From: an uncultured Actinomycetota bacterium
Lineage (GTDB): Bacteria > Actinomycetota > Actinomycetes > DATJPE01
Reading direction: 5' to 3'
Length of the DNA: 64,000 nt
NCBI GenBank assembly: GCA_963819985.1
Contig: CAWFYH010000004.1
Span: 397,422-461,421, forward strand
A program made the translations under genes and the position numbers. Below are positions 204 through 25,138 of the stretch, in pieces; the stretch's first letter is position 1; every line of letters starts with the position of its first letter. Under the pieces are notes generated by a model, which searched no databases, was not told where the DNA came from, and worked only from the letters and a program-made list of their open reading frames with translations.

Positions 204-1016
204 TCAGGTTCGCTCACCCGGTGAGCTGGGCCATGGATCGACCCTGTCCAGATCCTCCAGGTCGTAGCCGAAGTGGGCGGCGCGATCGGCAAACCGCCGC
301 ACCAAAGCCGCTCGCTCCAGCCGCCGCCACGGAACCTTGTCGTGAGCGAGGGCCTGCCAGCGCTCGGCGTACCGACTGCTGCGTCCTCCCTCGAGGCCGT
401 CGCCCGGGATCTCGCCGTGCAGGCCGAGAAATGTGCCGATCGCCTCGAGCTGGTCACGCGGTTGCGCGAGCAACGCCTCGTACTTGACCACGTGCACGTG
501 ATCGAGGTGCGTGGCATCCGCCTCGAACAGGTCATGGGCGGTGAACCAGTGGCCGAATGGCACGCTGAGCCGACGGCGTCGCACCCACTTGTGCGTCGAC
601 AGCGCGACCACGACCGGGTGGCGCACGATGACGACGAACCGGGCGCCGGGAAACAATCCCTGCAGCATCCGGGTCATCAGCAGATTGGGCGGTGACTTCT
701 CCAGCAGCAGCCGGCGGTCGAGATCCCAGTGCGGAGCCCAGGACGTCAGCAACCGCGACGCGTTCTCCGGCGTGACTATTGGTGACGTCTCGGTCAGATG
801 CGCTCGCCGGTCGTAGGCGAACCGTCCGGCCCCCCCGTAGGCGCGCGCCGGCGGGTACACGTCTTGCAGGTGCTGACCCTCGTCTTCCTTGGCGGTGGTG
901 CCAGCAAAGCCGCTCACATCCGGGTGCTCGGCCAGCACCTTGGCCAGCGCAGTGGTGCCGCTGCGATGCAGTCCGGCCACGAAGACCAACCGCGACGGGT
1001 CGGGTTCGCGAGTCAT
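204..1016 (-). CDS. Sulfotransferase (Sulfotransfer_3-like), EPS locus ST1
   Basis: 5'-PSB loop VFVAGLHRSGTTAL, EKSPPN, 3'-PB VIVRHP, VKYE. ATG at 1016 overlaps the upstream stop (ATGA). Confidence 0.88.
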   Translation of the reverse strand: MTREPDPSRLVFVAGLHRSGTTALAKVLAEHPDVSGFAGTTAKEDEGQHLQDVYPPARAYGGAGRFAYDRRAHLTETSPIVTPENASRLLTSWAPHWDLDRRLLLEKSPPNLLMTRMLQGLFPGARFVVIVRHPVVVALSTHKWVRRRRLSVPFGHWFTAHDLFEADATHLDHVHVVKYEALLAQPRDQLEAIGTFLGLHGEIPGDGLEGGRSSRYAERWQALAHDKVPWRRLERAALVRRFADRAAHFGYDLEDLDRVDPWPSSPGERT

Positions 1017-1939
1017 GGGGTCCCCGTCAGGATCTGGCGCCAGGCGTCCCTCGATGGCGCGTCCGTGAGTCGGTAGTCGGTGCCCGTGATCGGCGAGTCG
1101 AAGTAGATGGCGAACGGTGATTTCAGATCGATGAGCTGCACAGCCACTTGCTCCAACCACCTCGCTCGTCCCGTGCCGTCGTCGCCTGGGACGACCTGTG
1201 ACCCCATCTCAGCCATGCCCAAGGGGTGGCCTACCTGTTCTGCCTTCTCGACCATGGGCGCTAGCCACGATGCTGCGTCGGGATAGGTGCCTTGGCGCAC
1301 CTCCCGGTTGTAGCAGTCGAAGCCCATGACGTCGAAGAACTCCGAACCTGGGTCGTAGTCCTCGAAGGTCCGACCCACCTCGGGCTTGGTCGTACGGCAC
1401 TGCAGCACCAGCGCCGCCTTCAGCTTGGGGCGATCAACCTCCTTGGACAGCTCGCGGATGTGGCGAAACGCCGCTCGGAACTCCTCAGCCGTGAAGTAGC
1501 CGTCTTCGATGTTGTCCTCCGGCTCGTGGAAATAGACCCACCAGACCCGTCGGTCCTTGGGAATCGACGAGAACCATGCGCTGAGAGCGGCGTCGTGGTC
1601 GCCAGCGATCACTTCGGCTGGCGGCAGCTTGAACGAGACGACCACTGGCCGGTCGGCAACATCAGCGGGACTGCCCTTCCACGGCGGTGGGTCCCCTGGA
1701 TAGAAGATCCGCGCGACCTCGAGCGTGCCGTACGCCGAGTCCTGGCGGGACAGAGCCTCCTCAAATCCTGCTGCGCCTCGATAGACCGTCGTTCCGAACA
1801 GCGTGACCCGCTCATCCGGCCCGGGCACCGTGATCGACGGACCCTCAGTGGGGGTGTAACTCGCACTCGAGGAGCAGCCCGCCGCCATGCAGGCAACCAG
1901 CAGCGCCGCAACTGCCCCTGCGCACCCACGGGGACTCAC
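1013..1939 (-). CDS. GH26-like glycoside hydrolase, lipoprotein
   Basis: Lipobox MAAGC, YFHEPEDNI (acid/base), FDVMGFDCYN, GMAEMG (nucleophile). GTG at 1939 overlaps the flippase stop (GTGA). Confidence 0.75.
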   Translation of the reverse strand: MSPRGCAGAVAALLVACMAAGCSSSASYTPTEGPSITVPGPDERVTLFGTTVYRGAAGFEEALSRQDSAYGTLEVARIFYPGDPPPWKGSPADVADRPVVVSFKLPPAEVIAGDHDAALSAWFSSIPKDRRVWWVYFHEPEDNIEDGYFTAEEFRAAFRHIRELSKEVDRPKLKAALVLQCRTTKPEVGRTFEDYDPGSEFFDVMGFDCYNREVRQGTYPDAASWLAPMVEKAEQVGHPLGMAEMGSQVVPGDDGTGRARWLEQVAVQLIDLKSPFAIYFDSPITGTDYRLTDAPSRDAWRQILTGTP

Positions 1940-3525: not shown

Positions 3526-4373
3526 CCCATCCATCGAGGAGTCCACCCGAGCCAGGCGGCCAATCGCTCGTCATAGGGGCGGAACTCTGTCTCCAACCGC
3601 TCCCGGAGCTCGCCGTCCATCGGAGAACGCGGCCGCGCATTGTGCTGGTCGTACCTTGCGTGGTCGGGCTGCGACAGCTCGAGGAAGTCGAACACCTCAT
3701 TGAGCGCCGGCGCCGGGTCCTCGAACAGTCGATGGCTGTCGACCACGAGGAAGCGGGATCGGTCGATGTGGGAGACCAGCTCCTCGAACTGCTCGATGTA
3801 GCGGCTTCGCGCCAGATAGGACTGGTGCTGCAAGGAGAAACTGTTGTACGTCGGATCCGCGATCATCCGCTCGCGTTCCCCACGGGTGCGTTCGACCTCG
3901 AGCTCTAGGGCCACCTCGAAAGGTTCGGTCTCATAACCCCGCGCCAGCTCGTGGGCGTGGGCCGAGAAGGCCCGCTCAACCGGGTCGCGAATCAGTGTGA
4001 TGACCTTCACCTCGGGCAGGTCCTTCGCGATGCGTTGCGCGGCCAGCGGGTGGAACAGGTAGTACGGACTCGACTCGAAGGTCATCACTGGAGCCCCGGT
4101 GCGGCGCCGTACCCGATCGGCAGTCCACTGCAGAGGGAAATGACTCCGGTACCAGGGAAGGCCCTTGTCGTAGTTGCGGTCGAAATAGTGCACGCCCTTG
4201 TGCAGCACCGCGGGCAGCACCTGAGGGTGTTCGGCCAACGACCGGTAGAGGCTCGAGGTGCCGCCGCGCTGCGCGCCGGCAACGAGGAAGGCCGGCAGCA
4301 GGCGAGCGTTGTTGGTCACCCGGCCGAACTGGAGCGCGGCTCCCCGCGCCAGGCGCCGGGTCGGCGCGAGCAT
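3522..4373 (-). CDS. Sulfotransferase (Sulfotransfer_1 / heparan-sulfate ST-like), ST2
   Basis: FLVAGAQRGGTSSLY..L..HP, VHYFDRNYDKGLPWYR, FESSPYYL, LIRDPVERAFS. GGGAGA RBS; start could be 4373, 4376 or 4379. Confidence 0.9.
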   Translation of the reverse strand: MLAPTRRLARGAALQFGRVTNNARLLPAFLVAGAQRGGTSSLYRSLAEHPQVLPAVLHKGVHYFDRNYDKGLPWYRSHFPLQWTADRVRRRTGAPVMTFESSPYYLFHPLAAQRIAKDLPEVKVITLIRDPVERAFSAHAHELARGYETEPFEVALELEVERTRGERERMIADPTYNSFSLQHQSYLARSRYIEQFEELVSHIDRSRFLVVDSHRLFEDPAPALNEVFDFLELSQPDHARYDQHNARPRSPMDGELRERLETEFRPYDERLAAWLGWTPRWMG

Positions 4374-4536
4374 CACCAACGTCTCCCATCGACACCTGCG
4401 CGAACGGCTTCTGAGCCTACGTCACCAGGCGGCTGGAGCATCCGGCCGAACGGCCAGAACGCACTCGTCCATCGGTCGATCCTCATCGGCGACCAGCGTC
4501 GCTCCGCTCGCCCCTGGCTATGCTCGCCGCGCAGGG

Positions 4537-5073
4537 ATGAGGCCGTTCGACGCCGGATCGGCCCCGGGATCGACGCAGAGCGAGGTGACACAGATCGTGG
4601 CCGCAGGCTCGGTGGACTCGCCCCCCCGCGTCCTTCTGGTCGGGTCCAGCGGCGGCCACTTGGCCCAGCTGATCGCTCTTCGCGGATGGTGGTCAGGAGG
4701 GGACCGCGCGTGGGTGACTTTCGACACGCCCGACGCCCGTTCGTCGCTGGTCGGCGAACCCGTGACTTGGGCGTTTCATCCAACGACCCGCAACCTGCCC
4801 AACCTCGTTCGCAACGCCTGGCAAGCGCGTCGCGTGATGAGGGATTTCCGACCAGACGTGATCGTCAGCACTGGGGCTGCGGTCGCGCTGCCGTACTTCA
4901 TCCTCGGGCGACTCGGCGGCCGGACCACGGTCTACCTCGAGGTGTACGACCGCATCGAGACCGCCACCCTGACGGGCCGGCTGTGCAGGCCGTTCACCAC
5001 TTTGATGCTCGTTCAGTGGCCGGAGCAGCAACACCTCTACCGCGACGCTCACGTGGTGGGACCTGTGCTGTGA
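4537..5073 (+). CDS. PssD/Cps14F/Alg14-like glycosyltransferase acceptor subunit
   Basis: LLVGSSGGHLAQL, RPDVIVSTGAAVALP, YLEVYDRI, LVQWPEQ. Start is ATG 4537 or GTG 4585. Confidence 0.88.
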   Translation: MRPFDAGSAPGSTQSEVTQIVAAGSVDSPPRVLLVGSSGGHLAQLIALRGWWSGGDRAWVTFDTPDARSSLVGEPVTWAFHPTTRNLPNLVRNAWQARRVMRDFRPDVIVSTGAAVALPYFILGRLGGRTTVYLEVYDRIETATLTGRLCRPFTTLMLVQWPEQQHLYRDAHVVGPVL

Positions 5074-6518
5074 CCCAGGCTGTCCCCCGACGACGCGTCC
5101 TCGCGCTCCTCGGCACCGACTACCACCCCTTCGACCGAGCAGTCGGGTGGCTGGACCAGTGGGCCGCCGACCACCCAGACGTCGACGTCACGGTGCAGTA
5201 CGGCAGGTCACGACCACCCACGGTCGCGACGGGTCGAGACTTTCTGGAGCACGCCGAGCTGACGTCGTTGATAGCTGAGAGTGACGTCGTGGTCTCCCAT
5301 GGGGGGCCGGCCACCATCTCCGAGGCGCGGGCTGCCGGGCACCTGCCCGTGGTCGTTCCCCGTGATCCGTCCCAGGGTGAGCACGTGGACGATCATCAGC
5401 TGCGCTTCACCGCGTGGCTCGCAGGCAAAGGTTTCATCGACCGGCATACCGATGCGTCGACGTTCGGGCCTGCGCTGGAGTCGGCCCTCGACCGGGATCG
5501 AACGGAGTCGGCCGCCGCCGACGAAGCGGTCGAGGGCAGCGTTGCCCGGTTGGAGCGCATGGTCACCCAGGCTCGCAGCCATCGGCGAGTACGCCCAACC
5601 GACGGCCCTACCGTGGTCTTCATCGCTGGCTTCGGACGCAGCGGCTCAACGCTGCTCGAGCGACTGCTGGGTGAGAGCCCGGGGATCACCTGCCTCGGTG
5701 AGGTCGTCCATCTATGGGAACGCGGGCTGACCAACGACGAACGCTGCGCCTGCGGAGAGCCGTTCAGCGGGTGCCCGACGTGGATGGCCATCGGGGATCG
5801 TGCCTTCGGAGGTTGGAGTCGGGTTGACGTGAAGCTCGTCCTTGAGCTTCGCCGGCTCGTGGACCGCCAGCGGCGCATCCCGGTCACCGCCTCCCCCGTG
5901 GTGAGTCGCACGACTCGCCAGGCGCTGGTCGAGTACGCGGGCTACTACGCCGCCATCTATCACGCCGCCGCCGCGCTGGCCGGTTCGAGCGTGATCGTCG
6001 ACTCCAGCAAGCACGTCTCCCTCGCCTTTGCGCTCAGCCACGACGTCGATCTTGATCTGCGCATCGTGCACCTGATCCGTGACGCACGTGCCGTCGCCTA
6101 CAGCTGGTCACGCGATGTCGAACGGCCCGAGACCACCAGCCAGCGTTCGCTGATGCCGCAGTACTCCGCCGCGGGAAGTGGACGCCGATGGCTGACGAGC
6201 AATCTGTTGGCGGACAGCCTGCGCCTGCGCGGACTGCCAGTAACACGGGTGCGTTACGAGGATCTCGTCTGTGACCCCGAACAGACGCTCACGGCGCTGG
6301 CCTGCGACCTCGCCCTGCCGGTGTCCCCCAAGCTCGACGTCGTGGACGGGCAGGTCGTCTTGGGCGCCTCCCACTCGGTAGCGGGCAACCCCATGCGTTT
6401 TGTGACCGGTCCGATCACGTTGCGTCTCGACGACGCCTGGGCGCAGGACATGCCCGCGGGCGACAGGCGCGTGGTGACCGCTCTCACGGCCCCTGTGCAG
6501 CGTTGGTACTCCCGGTAG
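5070..6518 (+). CDS. Fusion: PssE/Cps14G/Alg13-like GT (N-terminal) + sulfotransferase (C-terminal), ST3
   Basis: N-terminal: LGTDYHPFDR, VQYG, VVSHGGPATI, VVPRDPSQGEHVDDHQ. C-terminal: VFIAGFGRSGSTLL, DSSK, HLIRDARAVAYS, VRYEDLV. One continuous frame; GTGA overlap with the pssD-like stop. Confidence 0.85.
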   Translation: MTQAVPRRRVLALLGTDYHPFDRAVGWLDQWAADHPDVDVTVQYGRSRPPTVATGRDFLEHAELTSLIAESDVVVSHGGPATISEARAAGHLPVVVPRDPSQGEHVDDHQLRFTAWLAGKGFIDRHTDASTFGPALESALDRDRTESAAADEAVEGSVARLERMVTQARSHRRVRPTDGPTVVFIAGFGRSGSTLLERLLGESPGITCLGEVVHLWERGLTNDERCACGEPFSGCPTWMAIGDRAFGGWSRVDVKLVLELRRLVDRQRRIPVTASPVVSRTTRQALVEYAGYYAAIYHAAAALAGSSVIVDSSKHVSLAFALSHDVDLDLRIVHLIRDARAVAYSWSRDVERPETTSQRSLMPQYSAAGSGRRWLTSNLLADSLRLRGLPVTRVRYEDLVCDPEQTLTALACDLALPVSPKLDVVDGQVVLGASHSVAGNPMRFVTGPITLRLDDAWAQDMPAGDRRVVTALTAPVQRWYSR

Positions 6519-6619
6519 GGCCACGAGCGCGTCGGCACTTTGTCTCATCTATTGGACACCACGAGTCACATCAGCCACCCTCGAACCAGTTGCCCCAGTT
6601 TCTGGTGTGCCGCTTTGCA

Positions 6620-6635
6620 TTTGAGCGATTTCACA
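6620..6635. promoter_or_regulatory. Candidate CRP/GlxR-type binding site
   Basis: TTTGA-GCGATT-TCACA matches 9/10 of TGTGA-N6-TCACA; intergenic, about 90 bp upstream of the riboswitch. Confidence 0.35.
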
Positions 6636-6722
6636 CCTACTGTCTGGCCCGCCCAGCCGCGTCGAGCTGAGCCCGTTCGCGCCACCGCCGAGTCCTGTCT
6701 CGCGCGCACGGAGTCGATCACT

Positions 6723-6850
6723 ATCCGCTGGCAGGAGCGGGGGACCCACACTCGGGCACCCGCCAGGTGTCCTCGGGGTTAAGCCGTCTCGCACGGCCGG
6801 GCTAGCTCCAGCCCGAACCCGACAGCTGACCTCGTAGGCGTCGGAGAGAG
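6723..6850 (+). ncRNA. c-di-AMP (ydaO/yuaA) riboswitch
   Basis: Ordered conserved blocks GAGCGGGGGACCCA ... TCGGGGTTAAG ... GGGCTAGCTC ... GCCCGAACCCGACAGCTGACCTCGTAGGCGT ... GAGAG, on the coding strand 51 nt before ATG 6902. Confidence 0.92.
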
Positions 6851-6901
6851 AGTCGTCTTGTCTACGTCGTACGCCCTCAACCTGCCTGGCCGGGAGTCTC
6901 G

Positions 6902-7885
6902 ATGACCCTGACCAGACGCGATCTGCTGAAGTATTCTGCGGTGACCACCGCCGGTGTGGCCGGCTTGTCCGTGGCTACCGTGACCGCACCGGCCGAGGCC
7001 AAGAAGAAAAGGAAGAAGGCCGCCGGGGGGGCTAAGTTCCCCGGTCACAAGCCGGGCCACATCTACCTCGGCGTGTCGGCCGCGGGGGACGTCAACAAGG
7101 CGATCCGCTCGACGGGGCCGGTCGGACTGGCCCGCACCTACTACCGCTGGGGTGACGCGAGCCGCGAGGACCGCAACATCAGGGCCGACCATGCAGCCAA
7201 CCGGCTCCCGTGGATCTCGTTCAAGCCTGCCTCGACCGCCAAGGGCGGCTGGGCGGCCATCGCCTCCGGTCGATACGACGCCGACATCCGCGCTCGAGCG
7301 CGGCGCTATGCGGGCCACTCCAAGCCGATCATCGTCACGTTCAATCACGAACCCCACAACGACAAGACCGGCTCTCCGAGTGACTTCGCCAAGGCCTGGT
7401 GCCGCATCCACGACGTCATGAAGAAAGAGACCGGCCTCAAGAACGTGATCTCGGTCCCGATTCTTGGTGACTGGGAGTTCAATCCCGTCAACCGTAAGGG
7501 CGACCCGGGCGCGTTCTTGCCGGACTCAGTCCTCAGCCGTTGTCACTTCCTCGGAACCGACATGTATCAGAATCGATCGGGTCAGGGCTACGACGTGCGG
7601 CTCGGGCGGATCCTGAACTGGCTCAACGCTCGCGGTCACAGCCAGCTGATGGTCGGGTTGGGCGAGACCGGCTGCACGAATGACTACGGCAGTCCGTCGG
7701 GCGCCACCTGGTGGACGAACGGCTGGAAGTGGGCGGCCGCACACAGCGACCGAGTCGCCGCCATCGCGTATTTCAACAGCCAGCACAACAACAACTCTGG
7801 CAACACCTGGCTGCTCACTGAGTCGGCCAGCAAGCTGGCCGCGTTCAAGCAGAGCCTTGCGTCCTCCACGGCCTGCAAGCTCTAG
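6902..7885 (+). CDS. Tat-exported GH26-like glycoside hydrolase
   Basis: Twin-arginine LTRRDLLK signal ending AEA; TFNHEPHND, FLGTDMYQ, GLGETG, AYFNS. GGGAG RBS. Confidence 0.78.
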   Translation: MTLTRRDLLKYSAVTTAGVAGLSVATVTAPAEAKKKRKKAAGGAKFPGHKPGHIYLGVSAAGDVNKAIRSTGPVGLARTYYRWGDASREDRNIRADHAANRLPWISFKPASTAKGGWAAIASGRYDADIRARARRYAGHSKPIIVTFNHEPHNDKTGSPSDFAKAWCRIHDVMKKETGLKNVISVPILGDWEFNPVNRKGDPGAFLPDSVLSRCHFLGTDMYQNRSGQGYDVRLGRILNWLNARGHSQLMVGLGETGCTNDYGSPSGATWWTNGWKWAAAHSDRVAAIAYFNSQHNNNSGNTWLLTESASKLAAFKQSLASSTACKL

Positions 7886-7906
7886 ATCAGCCAACCTTCA
7901 CTCAGC

Positions 7907-7948
7907 GCACGACGGCACCGGTGGGACCACCCACCGGTGCCGTCGTGC
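7907..7948. terminator. Bidirectional terminator-like hairpin
   Basis: Perfect 19-bp stem GCACGACGGCACCGGTGGG / CCCACCGGTGCCGTCGTGC with a 4-nt loop, between convergent stops at 7885 and 7966. Confidence 0.75.
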
Positions 7949-7965
7949 CTAGCCGAATCTTCCGG

Positions 7966-8754
7966 TCAGGACTGATCGCGACGAGCAGCAGTGCCTCGTC
8001 CTACCCAGAGTCCGATCAGCACTCCGATCGTCACACACCCGCCAAGGACGGCGAGTCGCACCTTCGGCAACAGGCGATCGGGACGGTTCACCGTCTTGAT
8101 CACTCGGCCGGGTTGCTGCTCGACGGCCTGCTGCACGGCGATCAGCTGGGCCGTCTGCTCAGCGGCCCGACGGGCGAGGACTCTGCTCGTCTCGCGACTA
8201 GCCGGCGACACGACCGTGTTCTGCGCGCGTCTTTGGGCCTCCTGGGCCTCAATGACCTCTACCCGGGCAGCAGTGGCGGCCTGCGCCCTCGCCACTCGCT
8301 CAGCAAGCGTCGCCCGCGCAATCCTGGCGACCATGTCTCGCGCTTGCGCCGCCGTTTCCGCTCGATAGCGGATGAGGATGATGGAGGCGTTGGGCACGAT
8401 CGCGGCGCTCAGCCGGCGGCGCATGACCTCAGCCGTGGGCGCGGGCTGCCCATCGGCCGCGACCCTTCTCAGCACAGCATCGGACTGGGGAAGATGGGAT
8501 TCTGTCTCCATGTCGGTCAACAGGTTTCCCGACCGGTCGGCGTAGGCGTTGCCGGGCATGGGCGCCAGCAGGACCGATGCCTCCGCAGTGACCTGGGAGT
8601 CCAGGCGTGTCCAGATCGCGAGCCCCAGGGCCGCCCCGGCAACGGCCAGCACGAGCACCCAAGCCGTGCGCCGCAACCACCGGCCACCGCGGTTGGACGA
8701 CTGATCGGATGCTCCCCCAGCCAGCTCCGGACTCTTCGTCAACACCTCGCTCAC
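7966..8754 (-). CDS. Wzz-like polysaccharide co-polymerase / chain-length protein
   Basis: Two terminal TM helices flanking a periplasmic-type coiled region; TAEASVLL, IVPNASIILIRY. GTGA overlap. Confidence 0.6.
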   Translation of the reverse strand: MSEVLTKSPELAGGASDQSSNRGGRWLRRTAWVLVLAVAGAALGLAIWTRLDSQVTAEASVLLAPMPGNAYADRSGNLLTDMETESHLPQSDAVLRRVAADGQPAPTAEVMRRRLSAAIVPNASIILIRYRAETAAQARDMVARIARATLAERVARAQAATAARVEVIEAQEAQRRAQNTVVSPASRETSRVLARRAAEQTAQLIAVQQAVEQQPGRVIKTVNRPDRLLPKVRLAVLGGCVTIGVLIGLWVGRGTAARRDQS

Positions 8755-9548: not shown

Positions 9549-9599
9549 ATCTGACTCGGACGTGCTTCTCGGCCGTAGGGTTCCCGAGGGGTCTGGCGC

Positions 9600-13230: not shown

Positions 13231-13270
13231 GTCACCTCCCGGGTGCTCGCAGTTGACATCGACGATGCGG

Positions 13271-14101
13271 CTACCTCAGCTCTAGCCGTTCACTCTCCAA
13301 ACGCTGCCAGATCTCGCTAGTTGACACCTCGACGTGCTCGACCTCGTTTGGATCAAGACGCTCTCGCCAACCGGACGCAACCTCACCGGGGGCGCGGTCG
13401 AAACCGTGCAGCTGACCAATTCTCGGCTGCTCGGGAGCCCCCACTGACGGCTCGTGATCTCCATGGGAACCGGGGACCAGCCCGCAGGCATGCATGACGG
13501 CCCGGACGGCTCGATCACCGCCAAGGGTGAGCTCGGCATGGGAGACCAGGACGGCTGTTGGGACACGGTGCAACCACTCCAGCACGCACTCGTGCAGGAA
13601 GCTCCAGAACTCCACCATCGCCGCGGCGTCGTTGTCGGGTGCGGCCGCATCGAGACCCCGAAGCGTTCTCATCTCCTCGACATCTGCGGTCCACCCCATC
13701 CGGCGATAGCTCGCAAGGACGGCTCCCGGGTGGCGGTAGACGACAACCGGGACAGCGCCGGTGACCTGGGCGATCGTCGGGACCGACAGCAGCGCGAACG
13801 GGTCCTTGATGATGGTGTGTGCCCAAGGCCAGGGGGCTGACGCGCGCGACGCCCCGTACCTGCTGTAAGTCCTCGGTTCGAGCCCCGCATAACACCGTCG
13901 CAGGACCTTGCTCTGGGTGGCAGTAGGACGCTCTAGCCGCGTCCACCCCGACAAGGTGCCGCCCAGAGCGAACTGGCCGGGTCGGGGATTCATCGGCTCA
14001 CGCCCCGGCAGACCGGTCCAGCGAGCTCGCGCCAATTCACGAGCCAGCCAGGTCGTGCCCGACCGGGGCATGCCCGTGACAAGAACCGGGGGAGCCGACA
14101 T
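13271..14101 (-). CDS. Sulfotransferase (Sulfotransfer_3-like), ST5
   Basis: VLVTGMPRSGTTWL, IIKDPFALL, VYRHPGAVLASY. Start is ATG 14101 or GTG 14164. Confidence 0.85.
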   Translation of the reverse strand: MSAPPVLVTGMPRSGTTWLARELARARWTGLPGREPMNPRPGQFALGGTLSGWTRLERPTATQSKVLRRCYAGLEPRTYSRYGASRASAPWPWAHTIIKDPFALLSVPTIAQVTGAVPVVVYRHPGAVLASYRRMGWTADVEEMRTLRGLDAAAPDNDAAAMVEFWSFLHECVLEWLHRVPTAVLVSHAELTLGGDRAVRAVMHACGLVPGSHGDHEPSVGAPEQPRIGQLHGFDRAPGEVASGWRERLDPNEVEHVEVSTSEIWQRLESERLELR

Positions 14102-14165
14102 CAGCTTTCGGGGCACACCGGACGAAGGACTGCGAGGCCCCACCTCGGTCGAGCTCGGCAGCACG

Positions 14166-15104
14166 TCATGAAAGACCACGGCCCACCACCCGCGCCGACC
14201 GAAGAAGGAATCGCGGATCAAAGGCGAAGACGACCTGCACCAGGGCAAGCAAGGCCTGCGGGGCGATCGGCCATCGTGACAATGACCGCCCAGCCCAGGC
14301 CAGGGCCTCGCGCCGGTGTCCAAGGCTGGCCTCGGCGAAGGCGATCTGGCCCATGATCCGGGCGTGCCCGGCCCTCGACCTCGAGATCTCCGGGTGTCGC
14401 TCGAGGACGTACTGGAGAGCGCTGGAGACGACCTCGTTGCGTTCCCGAAACCAGGACTGGCCGTCCTTCTTGATCGTGGCCAGTGGCTCGCGCACCACAC
14501 CGATCGGCCCCAACCGGACCGCGCGCAGCAGCCACTCGTAGTCCTCGGCGTAGCTTTGCGGAAGCTTCTCGTCGTAATCACCCACGGCGTCAAAGACCGA
14601 CCGGCGCATGAGCAGCGTCGACGAATGCAGCTCTTTGCGGCGAGAGCGGAACAGATCGCCCTGGGTGACGACATCCGCCGGCCCCAGCCATTCGACGACT
14701 CGGTCCTCGGCCATCTGCAGTCGGATCCCGGCCCCCACGACCATGAGCGCAGGTTCGCTCAGCAGTCGCTCCATCTGCCGCTCGAGCTTGCCCGGCAGCC
14801 AGGCGTCGTCGTCGTCACAGGACGCAACGAAGTCGGTCGTCACTTCACGGAGTCCGGCGTTTCGGGATGCGGACAGCCCGGTTGCGCCGGTGTTGGCCAT
14901 CACCTGCACCCTTCGGCCAGGGCGCGCCAGAGACTCGAGGCTGAGGTCCGGCGGCTCCTGATCATGGACCACGATGCAGCGCACTGAGCCGGCGTACGTC
15001 TGACCGACCACGCTCTCGACGGCCTTGCGAACCAGCTCGGGACGACCCCGGGTCGGGACCACCACGGTCACTGCTGGAGCGCAGTCGGGCTCAGGGGCGT
15101 CCAC
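14166..15104 (-). CDS. GT2 family glycosyltransferase
   Basis: VTVVVPTRGR, GLSASRNAG, VASCDDDD (DXD), AEDYEW. Confidence 0.9.
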   Translation of the reverse strand: MDAPEPDCAPAVTVVVPTRGRPELVRKAVESVVGQTYAGSVRCIVVHDQEPPDLSLESLARPGRRVQVMANTGATGLSASRNAGLREVTTDFVASCDDDDAWLPGKLERQMERLLSEPALMVVGAGIRLQMAEDRVVEWLGPADVVTQGDLFRSRRKELHSSTLLMRRSVFDAVGDYDEKLPQSYAEDYEWLLRAVRLGPIGVVREPLATIKKDGQSWFRERNEVVSSALQYVLERHPEISRSRAGHARIMGQIAFAEASLGHRREALAWAGRSLSRWPIAPQALLALVQVVFAFDPRFLLRSARVVGRGLS

Positions 15105-16989
15105 GGTCGCCGCTCTTGGCCGTCGACCGTGTCTTGGCCGCACCCCGACCGACCGGCTTGACCGCCTCTGAGGCGTCTAACCCTTGGGAAGGCTGGGCTT
15201 GCGATGCCTGGTCTTGCTGTCCTTCGTCCGAGATCAGCGAGTCCGCAGTCTCCGAGCCAGAGTTCGGGGCCTGCCGGGATTCCATCGTTGACGGCCCGGC
15301 GTGACCACCCACGTCGGAGACGGTCACGATGCCAACCACGTGCTCGGTGACGCCGAGCCAGGTGAGCTGCTCGACCGCATAGACCAGGTCCTGCTGCTGG
15401 CTCAGACCTACCTTCACCACGATCAGCACGGGACCCGCGGTCTGCAGAACACTTTGCGCGAGCGCCCCGTCCAGCGGCACCTGCACCTGGGCCACGGCCG
15501 TCCCGTGGCTGTTGGCCAGCTCCCCCCACAGCTTGCCCAGACGACGACGTTGGGTCGCCGGTGGAATGTCGCTCGAGCCGCTGCCCGGCCCCATGAGGGC
15601 TGCCCCTTGCCGGGACACTGCTGGAACCGCATCTGCGGCGGCGCATTCGCCGCCCAAGACATTGGTCAGTCCGGGTGCGTCAGAGGTGAACCGTCCCGCG
15701 ACGGCCGTTCCACCAGGCTCGGTCAGGACCAGGGCCGCACCGCCGAGCACGTCATTGACAGCATCGCTGATCGCGACGGCTGCTCGGGTCATGAGGCCCG
15801 GGTAGTCGACTCCGACGAGCACCAGCGGACCCCGTCGCTGCGAAGCGGCGGCGACGGAGGTGACCAGTCCCTCGAGCCCAGCATGGTCGCTTCCGCCCAC
15901 AGCACCCGACTCATCCACCTCGACCGAGCCGAGCACGTCCAGCCGAGTTGGCGACAGCGGCTCCGATGGCTCTGGCCGGGCCGGCGGGGCCGGTGGAGGA
16001 ACAGACTCCGTAACCATGCCTACGGTGGCAGCGGCAGCCGGAGCGGCAGCCGGGAGCGACGGCGGATCGGCTCGGAACTCACCGGTTGGAGGTGGTGGGA
16101 TCGAAGGCCGCGGTTCGATCGCCGTGACGGCTTGGGTGGTCGGACGCGACAGGCTCGCCAAGGCGCTCGACCCGCTCGACGCCAGCTCGGCGTCGGCCGA
16201 CCGTCGCTGCATCAAGAGCACGAGGCCGGATCCGACCAGACCCCCGAGAACAACACCGGCCAGCACATCGATCCACAGCACAGGCGACGTGGGGCTTGCG
16301 GGCAACGTGGCCTCGCTGATGATCTGCCCACCCTGCGTGGTCTGGACGTCCAAGGCGACGAGTCGGCTGTTGATGTCGGAGATCTGGGTCTGTGTGATGG
16401 CGATGTTGGCCTGCGCTCGCGCGAGATCTGACTCCCGGCCCGACGCCTTCGCGGCGGCTAGGTCATCGGTGTATCCGTTGAGTTCTTCCGTGAGGCTGGC
16501 AAGTTGCCTGTCCAGGCCCGCCTTGGCGGCGTCCCGAATTTCTGCGGCGGCCTTCGACCGGCGGTCGAGGTAGGCCGTGGCGAGAGCCTGGGCACCGTCA
16601 CGAGCCAGCTCAGGTGTCTTGGCGTCGAAGGAGATCACCAGCACCTCACTGTTCGGGGAGGTGGTCACCGCCGAGTTGTCGATCAGCTGCTGACCGGTGA
16701 CAACGCCCCCGAGCGCAGTGGCAGCGTCGGCCGCGACCTGAGCCGAGTGCGCGACCTCGGCCTCGGTCTGGATCTGTACCTCGGTGGTGCGCCCCCCGTC
16801 GGTCGAGGAGTCCAGCCCACCTGCCGTCGGGAGCACGAGGACCGACGCTTCGGACTCGTACACCGGAGTCTGCAGCGCATAGAACGCGAAGCCGGCGCCC
16901 CCCCCGATCAACGCACACACCACGACCAGAGCTACCTGCGCCGCACCCCATGGGCGACGACCCTCGTCTTGACTCGTCGCAGTCAACAC
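15091..16989 (-). CDS. Wzc-like co-polymerase with a degenerate (pseudo)BY-kinase domain
   Basis: Wzz N-terminus (YESEASVLV, SEVLVISF), second TM, Pro/Ala linker, then a kinase-fold remnant (PGLTNVL, VLIVVKVG, VVGIV) lacking GK[ST], DxD and the Tyr cluster. GAGGA RBS before GTG 16989. Confidence 0.72.
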   Translation of the reverse strand: MLTATSQDEGRRPWGAAQVALVVVCALIGGGAGFAFYALQTPVYESEASVLVLPTAGGLDSSTDGGRTTEVQIQTEAEVAHSAQVAADAATALGGVVTGQQLIDNSAVTTSPNSEVLVISFDAKTPELARDGAQALATAYLDRRSKAAAEIRDAAKAGLDRQLASLTEELNGYTDDLAAAKASGRESDLARAQANIAITQTQISDINSRLVALDVQTTQGGQIISEATLPASPTSPVLWIDVLAGVVLGGLVGSGLVLLMQRRSADAELASSGSSALASLSRPTTQAVTAIEPRPSIPPPPTGEFRADPPSLPAAAPAAAATVGMVTESVPPPAPPARPEPSEPLSPTRLDVLGSVEVDESGAVGGSDHAGLEGLVTSVAAASQRRGPLVLVGVDYPGLMTRAAVAISDAVNDVLGGAALVLTEPGGTAVAGRFTSDAPGLTNVLGGECAAADAVPAVSRQGAALMGPGSGSSDIPPATQRRRLGKLWGELANSHGTAVAQVQVPLDGALAQSVLQTAGPVLIVVKVGLSQQQDLVYAVEQLTWLGVTEHVVGIVTVSDVGGHAGPSTMESRQAPNSGSETADSLISDEGQQDQASQAQPSQGLDASEAVKPVGRGAAKTRSTAKSGDRGRP

Positions 16990-17040
16990 CCGATCCTCAC
17001 TACGAAGTCCCACCGTCGGAATCAACTGCCTTGCGGATCG

Positions 17041-17112
17041 ATCCGATCCGGCGCAGCCCACGTCGCCACCAGTGTCGCGCCGATCACTTGAAGTTACATC
17101 ATCCGATCCGGC
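17041..17112. repeat. 12-bp direct repeat ATCCGATCCGGC, 60-bp period
   Basis: Copies at 17041-17052 and 17101-17112, upstream of the wzc-like gene. Confidence 0.8.
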
Positions 17113-17194
17113 AACAACTGATGCGCCGAACGGCCGTGGGCCGTCCGGCGCATCAGCGCACGCCTATGATCGCGCCCGGACTTGGCGCGCCAGA

Positions 17195-18730
17195 TCAGCT
17201 ACCGCTCACGACCCACTTCCACGCCGCCCTCGAGGGCGCGTCGAGCAGGCGGTACTCGGGGTTGGCGACCGCACCCCCGAAGGCGTCGAAGTAGTTGACG
17301 AACGTCGCGTCATGCGAGCGGAAGTATTCCGCGGAGGCCTTGAGCCAGGCCGCCCGGTCCTGCCCGTTGTCTCCGGGGGCGAGTTTGCTCGCGAACTCAC
17401 CGAGCCCCCAGGGCTTGCCCATGGACTCCGACGCGATACGCAGGTCGTCGAGGATGCTCGCCGGGCTGTCGTAGGTGCCGTTGTCACGGCCACGGTTGTA
17501 ACAGTCCCAGCCCATCAGGTCCACCACGTCAGAGCCCGGGTAGTAGTCCTTCCAGTCACGACCCGAACCCTTCCTGAGGTCGTAGCACATCCAGATCGTG
17601 GCCGTGTGCAGGCGTGGATTGCCGGCAGCGTCGGCCAGCCCATCGAGCCGGCGCAACGCCTCTCGGTACTGGGTGGCCGTGAACTGACCCTTCTCGATGT
17701 TGTCCTCGGGCTCGTGGAAGTTGGTCCAGTAGATGTCGCGGTCACGCGGTGCGTTCGCGAACCAGTTCCGGAAGAAGCCGTCGAGGTTCCCGGACACCAC
17801 CTGCTGGGGCGACGCCTTGAACGAGACGACGACCGGTCCGCCCGTGCTACCTGCCTTGCCAGGCCATGCCGACGGCATGCCCGGGAAGAAGACGCGAACC
17901 ACCTTCAGCCCGCCGTAGTTGGCATTGGATCGGGCGAGGGCCGTCGCGAACGACGTACCGTCCCCGGTGTAGACGCTCGCACCGAACAGCGTGTTGCCCT
18001 TCGCCGCCGACGGAGGCTTCGGGTTGTCGGACTTTGCCGGCTCGGACTTGGTTGGTTCAGGCTTCGCCGTCGCCGACTCGGTTGGTGACGGTTTGGGCTT
18101 TTCAGTCTTGGTGGGCTTCGGCGCTGGCTTGGCCTCGGGCTGGTCGCGGTCGGTCAGCACCTTGCGGACGTCGACGTCGTCGACGCTGAACGTGTCTCCC
18201 TTGGCGGCCTTCAGCGCCAACACCTGCACAGCGATCTGCGTACCGTCGCCGACGGCGGTGTACTCAGCCGAGAGCTGGTGCCAGGCGCCATCGGTCAGGA
18301 CAGCCTTCGACTCGGTCTTGCCCACCAAGGACAGTCCGGCCACCTCGCGGAACCTGAAGGTCACACCGAGGCGCGGAGTGTCGGTGCGAACCCAGACCGA
18401 GGCGACATACCGGTCGCCCTTGGCGGCGGACGCAATGACGTTGGGGCTGTCGTTCAGCAGCAGGTTGGTTCGCGCCAGCGCAGTCAGCTTGGCCGCCCGT
18501 CGGCTTTCATGCCCCGCGCCGCTGCTCAGCGTGACCTTCGAGTTCTGGGTGTTCCATCCGGCGTTGCCCGACTCGAAGTCGGGGTTGCTGACCAGGTTGT
18601 CGGACAGCCGCGGCGCCTCGGCCGTAGCCGCACCGTTGACGCTCAGGATGGCGGCCACGAGGGCCGCGGCGCCGGCTGCGGCCACCAGAGAAATTGCCGT
18701 TCGAGGGCGTTGAACAGCGTGTCGACCCAT
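17195..18730 (-). CDS. Secreted CBM4/9-like domain + Pro/Lys/Thr linker + GH26-like hydrolase
   Basis: Sec signal; NLVSNPDFESG (CBM_4_9-like); PKPT linker; NFHEPEDNI, VDLMGWDCYN, GLGEFA. GGAG RBS. Confidence 0.78.
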   Translation of the reverse strand: MGRHAVQRPRTAISLVAAAGAAALVAAILSVNGAATAEAPRLSDNLVSNPDFESGNAGWNTQNSKVTLSSGAGHESRRAAKLTALARTNLLLNDSPNVIASAAKGDRYVASVWVRTDTPRLGVTFRFREVAGLSLVGKTESKAVLTDGAWHQLSAEYTAVGDGTQIAVQVLALKAAKGDTFSVDDVDVRKVLTDRDQPEAKPAPKPTKTEKPKPSPTESATAKPEPTKSEPAKSDNPKPPSAAKGNTLFGASVYTGDGTSFATALARSNANYGGLKVVRVFFPGMPSAWPGKAGSTGGPVVVSFKASPQQVVSGNLDGFFRNWFANAPRDRDIYWTNFHEPEDNIEKGQFTATQYREALRRLDGLADAAGNPRLHTATIWMCYDLRKGSGRDWKDYYPGSDVVDLMGWDCYNRGRDNGTYDSPASILDDLRIASESMGKPWGLGEFASKLAPGDNGQDRAAWLKASAEYFRSHDATFVNYFDAFGGAVANPEYRLLDAPSRAAWKWVVSGS

Positions 18731-19111: not shown

Positions 19112-19129
19112 GTCACCCGAATGGGTGAC
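19112..19129. terminator. Hairpin downstream of the priming transferase gene
   Basis: GTCACCC-gaat-GGGTGAC, a 7-bp perfect stem about 35 nt after the stop at 19163. Confidence 0.4.
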
Positions 19130-19162
19130 GCGATTCGGCCGATGGCGCGCCGGAGGGTCGCG

Positions 19163-20836
19163 CTAGTAGGCCCCTTCGCCCTTCGCCACCGCACGGAAGG
19201 TCTTCCACAAGATCACCACGTCGAAAGCGATGGACCAGTTGTCGACGTATCTGAGGTCGAGGCGGACCGACTCCTCCCACGCCAGGTCAGAGCGGCCGCT
19301 CACCTGCCAGAGGCCGGTCATCCCGGGCTTGACCAGGAGGCGACGCTTGACCTCGTCGTCGTAGGCCGAGACCTCTTCTCCCAGAGGCGGGCGGGGACCG
19401 ACCAAGGACATCTGCCCCATCACGACGTTGAGCAGCTGGGGCAGCTCGTCCAGGGAGTACCGACGCATCCAACGCCCGACGGAGGTGATGCGGGGGTCGT
19501 CATGCATCTTGAACATCAACCCGTCGCGGTCACTGTGGTCCAGCAGGTCTGCCCGCGCGTCCTCCGCGTCCACAACCATGGAGCGGAACTTGATCATCTT
19601 GAACTCACGACCGGCACGTCCGATGCGGGTCTGCCGGAAGAACACGGGACCGGGCGAGCTGCGTCGGATGGCTACGGCGATGGCGAGCAGCGCTGGGGAG
19701 AGCACGACCAAGACCACCAGAGCAGTGATCCGGTCGAACAAACCCTTGCCGACCCGGCTGAACCCGCTGAACCTCGGCTTGGCCAAGTTGAGCAGCGGCA
19801 GCCCGTCGACAGGGGTGACGTGAACCCGGGGGCCGGCCACCTCGATCAGCCCGGCAGAGACAAGCAGCTCCGCCTCCGTGCCCTCGAGGTCCCATGACAG
19901 CCGTCGGAGGTTGGGCCCGGCCATGACCGGGCCGGTCAAGACAGCGACGACATCGGCCCGATGCGTTCGTACGGCCTCGACCGCCCGCTCGACTCCTACC
20001 AGGGTCGGAAGGCCGGCCTCTCGAACTGCGACGTGATCGCTTCCGTACGTCAGGCACACGGCGACCGGCTCGAGGCCGTGGAACGGCCATCTCCGCAGCT
20101 GGGTGACCAAGCCGAGGGCCGATCTGTCGTCTCCGACGATGACAACCCGCTTCATGCACTCGCCACGGGCTCGGCGATGATGCAGCCGTCGCCGCAGCAA
20201 GTAGCGCCCGGCCAGATCGAGCAGGACGGTGAAGGGCAAGACCACGAGCACGAACCCGCGTGCGACGGTCAGCTGGAGCGCATAGGCGACGAAAGCGGCG
20301 CTCGCCACGAGGGCGACGCCTGCGGACATGACACGACGGTATTCGTCTGAGCCGATCCCGAAGATCCGCTCGTCATAGGCCCGGGCGAGCCCCAGCAGGC
20401 CTACCCACACCAGGGGCAAGAGCATGGCCGAGACGATCATCACGGCGCGCTCGAAGGCGGCGGGGCGGATGAGCAAGGTGAGGATCGAGGCATCGATGGC
20501 GACCAGCACATCGACCATGAGGACCGAGGTGCGGTAACGCCGCTGCCACGGTTCGGTAGGTTCGGTCAACTCTGGGTGACCCGCCTCGCCCACCGTAGCT
20601 GTGGCGGTCATGGCGGAGGCGTCCAACCCATCGGGCAGGTCGCGCAGGGTGTCGACCGCGACGTCCTCCTGGTCAGGGATCACCCGCAGGGTGTCGACCC
20701 GGGCGTCGCCTTGATCAGGAACGACTCGCAGGGTGTCGATCTGCTCATCCTGGTGCTCATCCGCGTCAGGCACGACGCGCACCGTGTCGGAAACGAGCGG
20801 TGGCCGCGTCATGCGGACCTCGTCCTCGACCGACAT
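19163..20836 (-). CDS. Priming polyprenyl-phosphate sugar-1-P transferase (WcaJ/CpsE family)
   Basis: TM region, Rossmann-like VVIVG domain, Bac_transf motifs FFRQTRIG, KFRSM, DPRIT, LDELPQL, SLVGPRP, KPGMTGLWQV. GGGGAG RBS before ATG 20836. Confidence 0.93.
   Translation of the reverse strand: MSVEDEVRMTRPPLVSDTVRVVPDADEHQDEQIDTLRVVPDQGDARVDTLRVIPDQEDVAVDTLRDLPDGLDASAMTATATVGEAGHPELTEPTEPWQRRYRTSVLMVDVLVAIDASILTLLIRPAAFERAVMIVSAMLLPLVWVGLLGLARAYDERIFGIGSDEYRRVMSAGVALVASAAFVAYALQLTVARGFVLVVLPFTVLLDLAGRYLLRRRLHHRRARGECMKRVVIVGDDRSALGLVTQLRRWPFHGLEPVAVCLTYGSDHVAVREAGLPTLVGVERAVEAVRTHRADVVAVLTGPVMAGPNLRRLSWDLEGTEAELLVSAGLIEVAGPRVHVTPVDGLPLLNLAKPRFSGFSRVGKGLFDRITALVVLVVLSPALLAIAVAIRRSSPGPVFFRQTRIGRAGREFKMIKFRSMVVDAEDARADLLDHSDRDGLMFKMHDDPRITSVGRWMRRYSLDELPQLLNVVMGQMSLVGPRPPLGEEVSAYDDEVKRRLLVKPGMTGLWQVSGRSDLAWEESVRLDLRYVDNWSIAFDVVILWKTFRAVAKGEGAY
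20643..20790 (-). repeat. Intragenic tandem repeat encoding [IV]DT[LV]R[VD][VIL]PD x4
   Basis: CGCAGGGTGTCGA at 20643, 20685 and 20727 (42-bp period), plus a degenerate copy at 20778. Confidence 0.8.
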
Positions 20837-25067: not shown

Positions 25068-25138
25068 TGGCTCACCGGAGACACCGAGCTCCACGCTCCC
25101 TGAACGACGTCGGCGGGCGGGTCCAGCCTAACGGTGGG

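Follow-up and report, generated by a model that had tools for sequence, protein, structure and literature searches.

A Wzx/Wzy-type locus with five predicted sulfotransferase domains, a glycosyltransferase-sulfotransferase fusion and a c-di-AMP riboswitch in an uncultured actinobacterium

Layout of the locus and its five sulfotransferase domains

We analysed a 64-kb stretch of DNA (64,000 nucleotides, hereafter the window) from an uncultured Actinomycetota bacterium (assembly GCA_963819985.1, contig CAWFYH010000004.1, positions 397,422 to 461,421) and concentrated on a locus of ~20 kb at positions 204-20836. The locus contains 17 protein genes and one cyclic di-AMP (c-di-AMP) riboswitch, arranged in three transcription blocks (Table 1). 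They include a set of Wzx/Wzy-type polysaccharide genes, five sulfotransferase domains of which one is fused to a glycosyltransferase half, a predicted kinase, and three secreted proteins resembling glycoside hydrolase family 26 (GH26). On the sequence evidence, this locus very probably directs the synthesis of a sulfated polysaccharide, and the polymer is probably a surface or secreted one that is densely sulfated.

Genes were called by combining a frame plot of third-position G+C content (GC3) with inspection of start codons and synteny with two close relatives; because the G+C content of the window is 65-71%, raw lists of open reading frames (ORFs) are crowded with shadow frames. Read directly, six gene junctions show the 4-nucleotide ATGA or GTGA overlaps of which the initial annotation had reported many, and these overlaps couple sulfotransferase genes to wzx, wzy and one GH26-like gene (stfA overlaps its upstream gene by ATGA). 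An ORF of 855 amino acids (aa) at 3951-6518 was rejected as a single gene, as the frame plot switches frame at ~5070 and separates a pssD-like gene from a pssE-like gene fused to a sulfotransferase (pssE-like::sulfotransferase). The ORF 7921-8934 (+) was discarded as spurious, synteny with the related loci L082 and L083 (L numbers designate related loci) favouring 7966-8754 (-), and the long N-terminal extensions 204-1160, 1013-2221 and 13271-14674 were trimmed back to the overlap starts. Neither sigma-70 promoters nor intrinsic terminators were found in a scan of 4300-8000. A GC-rich inverted repeat lies between the CBM/GH26-like and the large co-polymerase-like genes of block A, and may be a terminator or attenuator dividing this block into two units.

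The five sulfotransferase domains with a loop for 3'-phosphoadenosine 5'-phosphosulfate (PAPS) and without signal peptide, as claimed in the initial annotation, were all recovered. Each scored above the Pfam gathering cut-offs of its clan (PF00685/PF13469, cut-offs 22-27), and an alignment showed the 5'-phosphosulfate-binding (PSB) loop G-x-x-[RK]-[SGA]-G-[ST]-[ST] and the 3'-phosphate-binding (PB) motif R-[DH]-[PA]...S to be kept in 5/5 domains, with invariant G..G and R/S columns. A topology check found no N-terminal hydrophobic segment, either signal or anchor, in any of the five.

Over their entire catalytic domains, StfB and StfC can be aligned with animal heparan sulfate (HS) 3-O-sulfotransferases (3-OST), and they are carbohydrate-sulfotransferase-like. 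In PDB searches, StfB matched HS 3-OST-3A (8e-19) with PSB loop, Glu and RDP..S motif aligned, and StfC matched the bacterial structure 3rnl (2.4e-17) and HS 3-OST-1 (6e-12). What they have in common with the animal HS 3-O-sulfotransferases and N-sulfotransferase domains is the PSB loop, the position of the catalytic-base Glu and the 3'-PB motif. On the contrary, the animal enzymes are Golgi type II membrane proteins whereas StfB and StfC are predicted to be cytoplasmic, soluble, bacterial proteins, and nothing at this locus gives evidence for a glucosamine/uronic acid backbone. StfA and the fused domain bear only remote likeness to solved sulfotransferases such as TPST2 and CurM (StfA matched TPST2 at 7.6e-5), and StfD had no match in the PDB sequence search. 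The sulfotransferases share only 22-28% identity with StfA and represent at least three divergent subfamilies. The exact StfA protein was also found on a Logan contig.

Table 1. Position and evidence for the features of the locus and of its surroundings in the window (PCP, polysaccharide co-polymerase; TM, transmembrane; APH, aminoglycoside phosphotransferase; TAT, twin-arginine translocation)
Feature	Length	Position	Strand	Evidence and remarks
Block A		20836 down to 7966	-	wbaP-like, CBM_4_9 + GH26-like, large PCP-like, GT2, stfD, stfC, wzy-like, APH-like kinase (ORF10), PCP-like ORF9, PCP-like ORF8
Block B		4537 to 7885	+	pssD-like, pssE-like::sulfotransferase, c-di-AMP riboswitch, TAT-signal GH26-like
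Block C		4373 down to 204	-	Divergent from B; stfB, wzx, GH26-like lipoprotein, stfA
stfA, predicted sulfotransferase	270 aa	204-1016	-	Pfam Sulfotransfer_3 88.9 bits, 7.2e-25; predicted cytoplasmic; variable accessory member
GH26-like lipoprotein, putative glycanase	308 aa	1013-1939	-	Lipobox-type N-terminus LVAC/AAGC
wzx, flippase	529 aa	1936-3525	-	Polysacc_synt 46 bits (cut-off 28.2), MatE 41 bits; 12 hydrophobic segments
stfB, HS 3-O-sulfotransferase-like	283 aa	3522-4373	-	Pfam Sulfotransfer_1 50.1 bits, 3.3e-13; core member
pssD/Alg14-like subunit	~178 aa	4537-5073 (start 4537, 4585 or 4597)	+	Alg14 34.7 bits (cut-off 27); GSSGGH motif
pssE/Alg13-like half fused to sulfotransferase	482 aa	5070-6518	+	Glyco_tran_28_C 39.1 bits (cut-off 22) + Sulfotransfer_3
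Fused sulfotransferase domain		C-terminal part of 5070-6518	+	Pfam Sulfotransfer_3 52.3 bits
c-di-AMP riboswitch (ydaO class, RF00379)		6716-6855	+	68.3 bits (gathering 38), E 1e-13; full length, model positions 1-134
tat327, TAT-signal secreted GH26-like, WpsE-type	327 aa	6902-7885	+	TAT signal; homology to WpsE-type proteins
PCP-like protein 1 (ORF8)	262 aa	7966-8754	-	Two terminal hydrophobic segments; GTGA overlap; matching genes in L082 and L083
PCP-like protein 2 (ORF9)	265 aa	8751-9548	-	Two terminal hydrophobic segments; E 2e-9 to N-terminal domain of large PCP-like protein
APH/fructosamine-3-kinase-like predicted kinase (ORF10), WpsI-type	408 aa	9600-10826	-	Predicted fold and invariant catalytic residues; core member
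Wzy-like polymerase	514 aa	10814-12358	-	Weak Wzy_C 18.8 bits (cut-off 31.7); 11 hydrophobic segments
stfC, HS 3-OST/3rnl-like sulfotransferase	291 aa	12355-13230	-	Pfam 46.9 bits; ATGA overlap with wzy
stfD, predicted sulfotransferase	~297 aa	13271-14164	-	Pfam Sulfotransfer_3 36.3 bits (cut-off 27); variable accessory member
GT2 glycosyltransferase		14166-15143 (start uncertain, 15062-15143)	-	Glycos_transf_2 7.6e-20
Large PCP/Wzz-like	up to 656 aa	15091-17061	-	Sub-cut-off Wzz (17.9 bits), GNVR and NCBIfam chain-length-determinant matches; two TM segments
GC-rich inverted repeat		17062-17194	-	GCGCTGATGCGCCGGACGG...CCGTTCGGCGCATCAG
Secreted CBM_4_9 + GH26-like		17195-18730 (likely start ATG 18730, giving a signal peptide; longest ORF from 18910)	-	CBM_4_9 30.9 bits
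WbaP-type polyprenyl-phosphate hexose-1-phosphate transferase (priming)	557 aa	19163-20836	-	Bac_transf 228.6 bits (cut-off 27), 4.9e-68; CoA_binding_3; 5-6 hydrophobic segments
tRNA-Gln(TTG)		25137-25209	-	Just upstream of glmU
RpfB-like protein		32480-33598	-	DUF348 x3, G5, transglycosylase; no c-di-AMP riboswitch in front (Rfam)
Protein O-mannosyltransferase (PMT family)		37311-39032	+	
tRNA-Ala(CGC)		39766-39844	-	
CrcB pair		45447-46306	-	No fluoride riboswitch in front (Rfam)

Repeat-unit assembly, kinase and secreted hydrolase-like proteins

The Wzx/Wzy set listed in the initial annotation (priming transferase, PssD/PssE-like pair, one GT2, flippase, polymerase and three PCP-like proteins) is present, the last two assignments being made on sub-threshold matches combined with topology. 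The identities of the priming transferase, Wzx, the GT2 and the Alg14/Alg13-like pair can be regarded as secure from their domain matches. Among the Pfam families that had been named for checking, sulfotransferase, Bac_transf and Polysacc_synt matches stand above their cut-offs, while Wzy_C stays below, and this last family takes in O-antigen ligases as well. Each of the three PCP-like proteins has an N- and a C-terminal TM segment, and the three are mutually homologous (E 1e-5 to 2e-9). In the large one, residues ~300-656 form a Pro/Ala-rich linker and a C-terminal domain where a bacterial tyrosine kinase module would sit, without Walker A; the locus family instead carries the unrelated APH-like kinase beside wzy.

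The pssD-like and pssE-like genes overlap by GTGA and were adjacent in 81/81 loci. The two proteins also match the N-terminal and the C-terminal half of WelK, respectively, and their NCBIfam scores (PssD 98.4 bits vs a cut-off of 110, PssE 53 vs 120) suggest that the pair is a family-level relative and not an equivalog. PssD/PssE of Rhizobium, Cps14F/G of S. pneumoniae and WelK/GelK of Sphingomonas are split enzymes of the GT-B type and transfer the second sugar of a repeat that is being built on a lipid; the window pair shares with them the combination of Alg14 and Glyco_tran_28_C, adjacent genes with a 4-nucleotide overlap and the GSSGGH and HGG motifs. The catalytic half here carries a C-terminal sulfotransferase domain, which PssD/PssE, Cps14F/G and WelK/GelK are not known to have.

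This fusion had not been described in the initial annotation, nor had the fold of the kinase, the three GH26-like secreted proteins and the riboswitch. Its AlphaFold2 (AF2) model (pLDDT 88, pTM 0.65) has two well-folded domains with a low-confidence helix between them, and Foldseek matched it to sulfotransferases (CurM ST, TPST2, Stf1, Stf0) and, through its N-terminal domain, to C-terminal halves of GT-B enzymes. Genomes and metagenomes gave more than 100 homologs over the full length, 44-82% identical, including Actinotalea, Microbacterium, Euzebya, Cryptosporangiaceae and Mycobacteriales. In Vallicoccus soli PssE is unfused and the sulfotransferase is retained separately. Full-length PssE::sulfotransferase fusions also occur near pssD, GT2 and sulfotransferase homologs in two metagenome-assembled genomes (MAGs) from outside the Actinomycetota, of Verrucomicrobiales (L013) and Burkholderiales (L020), and could reflect horizontal transfer or binning error.

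The priming enzyme, the PssD/PssE-like pair and the GT2 are the only three sugar-adding activities of the locus, against five sulfotransferases. No UDP-glucose dehydrogenase, glycosaminoglycan (GAG) synthase, epimerase or amino-sugar gene is found among the locus genes, and glmU next door belongs to a conserved housekeeping block. The "glycosaminoglycan-like" label of the initial annotation is thus without specific support; the only hints of GAG likeness are similarities at family level, of StfB and StfC to HS 3-O-sulfotransferases and of PssD/PssE to glucuronosyl- and galactosyl-transferases.

ORF10, already called a kinase in the initial annotation, has no Pfam match and no PDB sequence match. 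Its AF2 model (pLDDT 90.1) predicts a kinase with a bilobal fold of the APH/fructosamine-3-kinase (FN3K) kind. The best Foldseek matches were FN3K 3jr1 (1.4e-6), APH(3')-IIIa and human FN3K, and the top 40 or more PDB matches were FN3K, APH, homoserine kinase and PsiK, at moderate TM-scores of 0.5-0.6 per target; ORF10 has an additional N-terminal region of ~100 aa. K129, E160, H280-G-D282...N287 and D299, corresponding to the catalytic Lys, the Glu, the HxDxxxxN loop and the metal-binding Asp, are invariant in 38 homologs. We give about an even chance to phosphorylation of a repeat-unit sugar by ORF10, which we favour over a regulatory role because the kinase is tightly coupled to wzy throughout the family and its nearest folds phosphorylate hydroxyls of sugars or aminoglycosides.

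Three secreted proteins of the locus are GH26-like. The C-terminal 265 aa of the CBM-bearing protein are 42% identical to the lipoprotein, and a profile of this family matched GH26 structures in the PDB (4zxo at 4.3e-6, Man26A at 3.9e-5), with printed alignments that span the nucleophile strand; E94 (HEPE) and E199 in the nucleophile region are invariant in the family. Against Pfam GH26 (PF02156, cut-off 20.2) the lipoprotein reached only 12.7 bits (E 0.082) and tat327 gave no match. tat327 is linked to GH26 separately, through a weak PDB match to a GH26 beta-1,3-xylanase and through the WpsE-type protein of Paractinoplanes (pairwise E 2e-8, ~25% identity), which just passes Pfam GH26 at 20.9 bits; BLASTP detected no similarity between tat327 and the lipoprotein. 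The V. soli locus holds three paralogs of the TAT GH26-like gene. In other exopolysaccharide (EPS) systems dedicated glycanases trim or release the polymer, and the GH26-like enzymes probably do so here.

The riboswitch ends 46 nucleotides upstream of the tat327 start codon. It was found at the orthologous position in L082 (11645-11791), L083 (11679-11857) and V. soli (L086; 16481-16631, -), at 45-76.8 bits. Actinomycete c-di-AMP riboswitches are otherwise known upstream of peptidoglycan hydrolases, and in the Streptomyces rpfA leader c-di-AMP binding terminates transcription. By analogy with this leader, low c-di-AMP would allow production of the TAT glycanase, the riboswitch most likely turning it off at high c-di-AMP. 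The arrangement has in common with rpfA and other ydaO-controlled wall hydrolases of actinomycetes that a riboswitch of the same class occupies the 5' leader of a gene for a secreted hydrolase. On the contrary, the controlled gene encodes a muramidase or an NlpC/P60 peptidase in rpfA-type systems, and here a GH26-like glycanase inside a polysaccharide-synthesis locus.

Related loci, wps-1 and the surroundings of the locus

A scan of genome contigs, whose distribution counts are lower bounds, returned at least 80 related loci. Carriers include Micromonospora (many species), Catellatospora, Nocardiopsis, Nocardioides, Streptomonospora, Marinactinospora, Actinoallomurus, Pseudokineococcus, Streptomyces specialis, Acidimicrobiia and Euzebyaceae; the scan also gave one Verrucomicrobiales and one Burkholderiales MAG, and Vallicoccus carries the locus as well. 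By homology, the locus family is widespread in Actinomycetota. The literature yielded no chemical report of a sulfated polysaccharide for any carrier genus.

Comparison of all window proteins with these loci by tblastn delineated a conserved core of wzx, stfB, pssD, pssE(::sulfotransferase), kinase, wzy, stfC-like and GT2 genes. Homologs of the PCP, GH26-like and wbaP genes are frequent, and pth-prs-glmU lies near several loci. Gene order is also kept: wzy is followed by the kinase in 38/51 loci, the kinase by an stfB-type sulfotransferase in 35/51, and stfB by wzx in 33/49. The two closest loci are MAG contigs (ENA ERZ25039539) collinear with the window, one of them without stfD. V. soli (L086) has a very similar locus (62% identity for the Wzy-like protein, 69% for GT2) with four sulfotransferases, adjoined by TauE and a gene with a PUA_2 domain plus an adenosine 5'-phosphosulfate (APS) kinase domain. 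PAPS-synthase-like genes (PUA_2, ATP-sulfurylase, APS_kinase) were found within 10 kb of L006, L021, L045, L054 and L084-L086, and TauE is also present near some related loci.

The sole studied relative is wps-1 of Actinoplanes missouriensis (AMIS_7280-7380, WpsA-K; Tezuka & Ohnishi, AEM, June 2026, PMC13390465). It encodes a GT2 (WpsA), a sulfotransferase (WpsB), a GT26 (WpsC), a DUF4262 protein (WpsD), a GH26 (WpsE), a methyltransferase (WpsF), Wzx (WpsG), an HS-type sulfotransferase (WpsH), a kinase-like protein (WpsI), Wzy (WpsJ) and Wzz (WpsK), and is transcribed during sporangium formation (PMC13390465). Gene-by-gene knockouts showed that all wps-1 genes but wpsD are required for normal sporangia, as is the adjoining sulfate-adenylyltransferase/APS-kinase gene (PMC13390465). 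Its authors inferred galactofuranose and glucose from glycosyltransferase phylogeny, and predicted a sulfated polysaccharide as product, for which chemical verification is awaited (PMC13390465). In the light of this dissection and of the distribution above, the statement of the initial annotation that sulfated EPS is not a standard actinobacterial product is not supported; that it is described mainly in cyanobacteria is also dated, as sulfated capsules or EPS have been reported from Vibrio, Cobetia and Pontiella.

We compared the window with wps-1 through the Paractinoplanes abujensis cluster L085, which reproduces the published wps-1 layout. The window has homologs for 8/11 wps-1 families at 25-49% identity, among them Wzx (44%), the predicted Wzy (33%), Wzz (34% to the large PCP-like protein), the WpsH-type sulfotransferase of Paractinoplanes (49% to StfB), the stand-alone WpsB-type sulfotransferase (47% to the fused domain) and the WpsA-type GT2 (38%); ORF10 is ~36% identical to 409-aa proteins found throughout Actinoplanes and Paractinoplanes. 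The adjacencies of wzy and kinase and of sulfotransferase and wzx are shared. On the other hand, PssD/PssE::sulfotransferase stands in place of the GT26 of wps-1, for which the L085 protein as tblastn query matched only L084 and L085 and nothing in the window. Moreover, wps-1 has two sulfotransferases and no glycosyltransferase-sulfotransferase fusion (window: five, one fused), one Wzz (three PCP-like proteins) and one GH26, WpsE (three GH26-like). It adds a methyltransferase and a DUF4262 protein, neither domain being found among the scanned window ORFs. The priming transferase belongs to the cluster in the window and not in wps-1, whereas a PAPS-synthase-type gene adjoins wps-1 and has no counterpart among the ORFs scanned in the 64-kb window; the riboswitch is present in the window and none is reported for wps-1, L085 not having been scanned for one. 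The locus is therefore homologous to wps-1 and yet a distinct variant.

These data bear on whether the sulfotransferases act on the polysaccharide at all. It is conceivable that they are merely co-located and modify a lipid, a small molecule or a protein tyrosine, since StfA and the fused domain are remotely closest in the PDB to tyrosylprotein and polyketide (CurM) sulfotransferases, and actinomycetes do make sulfolipids. We consider this very improbable: one sulfotransferase forms a single protein with half of a glycosyltransferase, other sulfotransferase genes overlap wzx and wzy by 4 nucleotides, their co-occurrence is kept across many genera, and the sulfotransferase knockouts of A. missouriensis phenocopy those of wzx and wzy (PMC13390465).

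How heavily the polymer would be sulfated is a separate matter. A comparison is offered by synechan (xss) of Synechocystis PCC 6803, made by a Wzx/Wzy/PCP pathway with cluster-encoded sulfotransferases (Maeda et al., eLife 2021, PMC8205485). By gene content, synechan has eight glycosyltransferases and two sulfotransferases, with a sugar-to-sulfate ratio of 8:2, against three sugar-adding activities and five sulfotransferases in the window, and this contrast suggests dense sulfation. The synechan system further differs in its diderm export through an outer membrane polysaccharide export (OPX) protein, in its XssQRS regulators where the window has a riboswitch, and in having no kinase, no GH26 and no fusion, all three of which the window has.

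Alternatively, the polymer might be lightly or variably sulfated, the five sulfotransferases being partly redundant, alternative or condition-specific, so that a high ratio of sulfotransferases to glycosyltransferases would not mean dense sulfation. Among loci longer than 20 kb, the number of sulfotransferases (tblastn with merged intervals, giving lower bounds) varies between 0 and 5 around a median of 2, related loci usually having 2-3; the five of the window are the maximum seen, equalled by L083 and L053. StfA homologs occur in only some related loci and StfD homologs only in L083, L086, L053 and L036, a minority in either case, and one of the two synechan sulfotransferases is dispensable for EPS accumulation (PMC8205485). 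On the contrary, the PAPS-binding motifs are intact in every domain, the divergence into several subfamilies suggests different acceptor positions, and the sulfotransferase genes are translationally coupled within operons. We regard light sulfation as possible, if rather unlikely, and dense sulfation as the probable state.

To the right of the locus lies a conserved actinobacterial housekeeping run of pth, rplY/ctc, prs and glmU, and the remaining window is housekeeping too (ABC-F, RpfB-like, TatD, MetRS, Pmt, MoeA, GalU-like, two CrcB, MscL, RbpA, FdhD and others). The ORFs 39905-41164 (-), 41561-42568 (+), 46407-47327 (-), 61541-62317 (-) and 59606-61378 (-) have no Pfam match despite coding-like GC3; one 590-aa protein among them gave a weak right-handed beta-helix match only. 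As stated in the initial annotation, no PAPS-synthesis or wall-ligase gene accompanies the locus, ATP-sulfurylase, APS-kinase and LCP domains being absent from the ORFs scanned across the 64 kb. On the other side, the closest relatives (L082 1-4939, L083 1-4914, L001 2154-3509) encode beyond stfA secreted proteins of ~1200 aa with PKD, malectin and DUF5122 beta-propeller domains, and L083 also a protein with a faint "Branch" (GT14-like) match. The locus may therefore extend past the left edge of the window.

This setting is relevant to the destination of the polymer. The same machinery could make an envelope or developmental matrix glycopolymer (wall-linked, spore-surface or sporangium-matrix-like) and not a freely released EPS, with the c-di-AMP-gated glycanase taking part in envelope remodelling. 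Indeed, wps-1 is expressed in sporangium formation and is required for the shape of sporangia and the release of spores but dispensable for growth (PMC13390465), actinomycete c-di-AMP riboswitches control wall hydrolases tied to germination, the housekeeping block pth-rplY-prs-glmU adjoins the locus here and in several relatives, and large secreted PKD/malectin proteins lie just beyond stfA in the close ones. Against it, no LCP ligase domain was detected in the scanned window ORFs and most carriers are not sporangium formers. Sequence features do not separate an anchored from a released polymer, and we hold the envelope role to be possible, if rather unlikely.

Proposed pathway and its significance

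Taken together, we consider it likely that the locus encodes a pathway of the Wzx/Wzy-dependent kind, and that its product is a polysaccharide of short repeats with sulfate at several positions and possibly phosphate as well. In this pathway, the WbaP-like enzyme would load a sugar-1-phosphate onto undecaprenyl phosphate, the PssD/PssE-like split GT-B enzyme would add the second sugar while the fused sulfotransferase acts on the same lipid-linked intermediate, and the third sugar would come from the GT2. On the cytoplasmic side, StfA-D would then transfer sulfate to additional hydroxyls from PAPS whose synthesis is encoded in another part of the genome, and the APH/FN3K-like kinase would either phosphorylate a sugar hydroxyl or regulate the machinery. 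The decorated unit would be flipped by Wzx and polymerised by the Wzy-like protein, the three PCP-like paralogs setting chain length. Finally, the three GH26-like enzymes (lipoprotein, CBM-bearing and TAT-exported) would trim or release the polymer, the TAT-exported one being switched by the c-di-AMP riboswitch.

As PAPS is cytoplasmic, and the sulfotransferases are predicted to be soluble without export signal and one is joined to the second-sugar enzyme, sulfation of the repeat linked to undecaprenyl diphosphate before Wzx flipping is the most economical scheme. The models for wps-1 (PMC13390465) and synechan (PMC8205485) likewise assume sulfation before flipping. The suggestion of the initial annotation that a short repeat is sulfated in the cytoplasm is therefore the natural reading of intact, predicted-cytoplasmic sulfotransferases, translational coupling, the fusion and three sugar-adding activities. 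In support, the homologous wps-1 behaves as one functional unit, in which normal sporangia depend individually on Wzx and Wzy, on the two sulfotransferases, on the kinase-like protein, on the GH26 and on the adjoining sulfate-adenylyltransferase/APS-kinase gene (PMC13390465).

Several points weigh against this interpretation. There is no chemical evidence of sulfate on any polysaccharide of the locus family, and the wps-1 authors themselves say that sulfation awaits verification; the window moreover lacks a PAPS-synthesis gene among its scanned ORFs. A repeat need not carry as many sulfates as there are sulfotransferase genes, and since StfA and StfD belong to the variable accessory members, some of the enzymes may be alternative or redundant. 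Assignment of the Wzy-like and PCP-like proteins combines sub-threshold Pfam matches and topology with homology to equally uncharacterised proteins, and PssD/PssE score below the NCBIfam equivalog cut-offs, so that no sugar specificity can be carried over from the equivalogs. The TAT enzyme could act on the wall instead of the polymer, given that actinomycete c-di-AMP riboswitches otherwise precede peptidoglycan hydrolases.

Sulfated polysaccharides are of industrial and medical importance, and their bacterial precedents are few: synechan alone combines genetics and chemistry, a few marine Gram-negative capsules have solved structures and genomically predicted clusters, and the case of wps-1 is genetic, not chemical. 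The window shows the wps-1-type machinery to be one face of a much larger actinobacterial family whose recognisable core is Wzy, an APH-like kinase, an HS 3-OST-like sulfotransferase and Wzx. Within it, the window variant has the highest sulfotransferase load among the fetched loci, and its glycosyltransferase-sulfotransferase fusion points to where sulfation would happen. The chemistry is directly testable, because culturable carriers exist in Micromonospora, Catellatospora, Nocardiopsis and Vallicoccus, and the riboswitch offers a regulatory handle that would tie c-di-AMP signalling to the turnover of an extracellular glycan.

More tentatively, the locus family might give actinobacteria, across the phylum, a route to short-repeat polysaccharides that are densely sulfated and possibly sulfo-phosphorylated. 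Sulfation would then be part of repeat-unit assembly on the lipid carrier, by way of the glycosyltransferase-sulfotransferase fusion and of a sugar kinase coupled to Wzy, and c-di-AMP would gate polymer release. If true, this would be the bacterial equivalent, at the cytoplasmic face, of glycan sulfation in the Golgi, and some sulfated "GAG-like" polymers that have been detected by chemical means in environmental EPS, for instance of granular sludge and microbial mats, could have a genetic source here.

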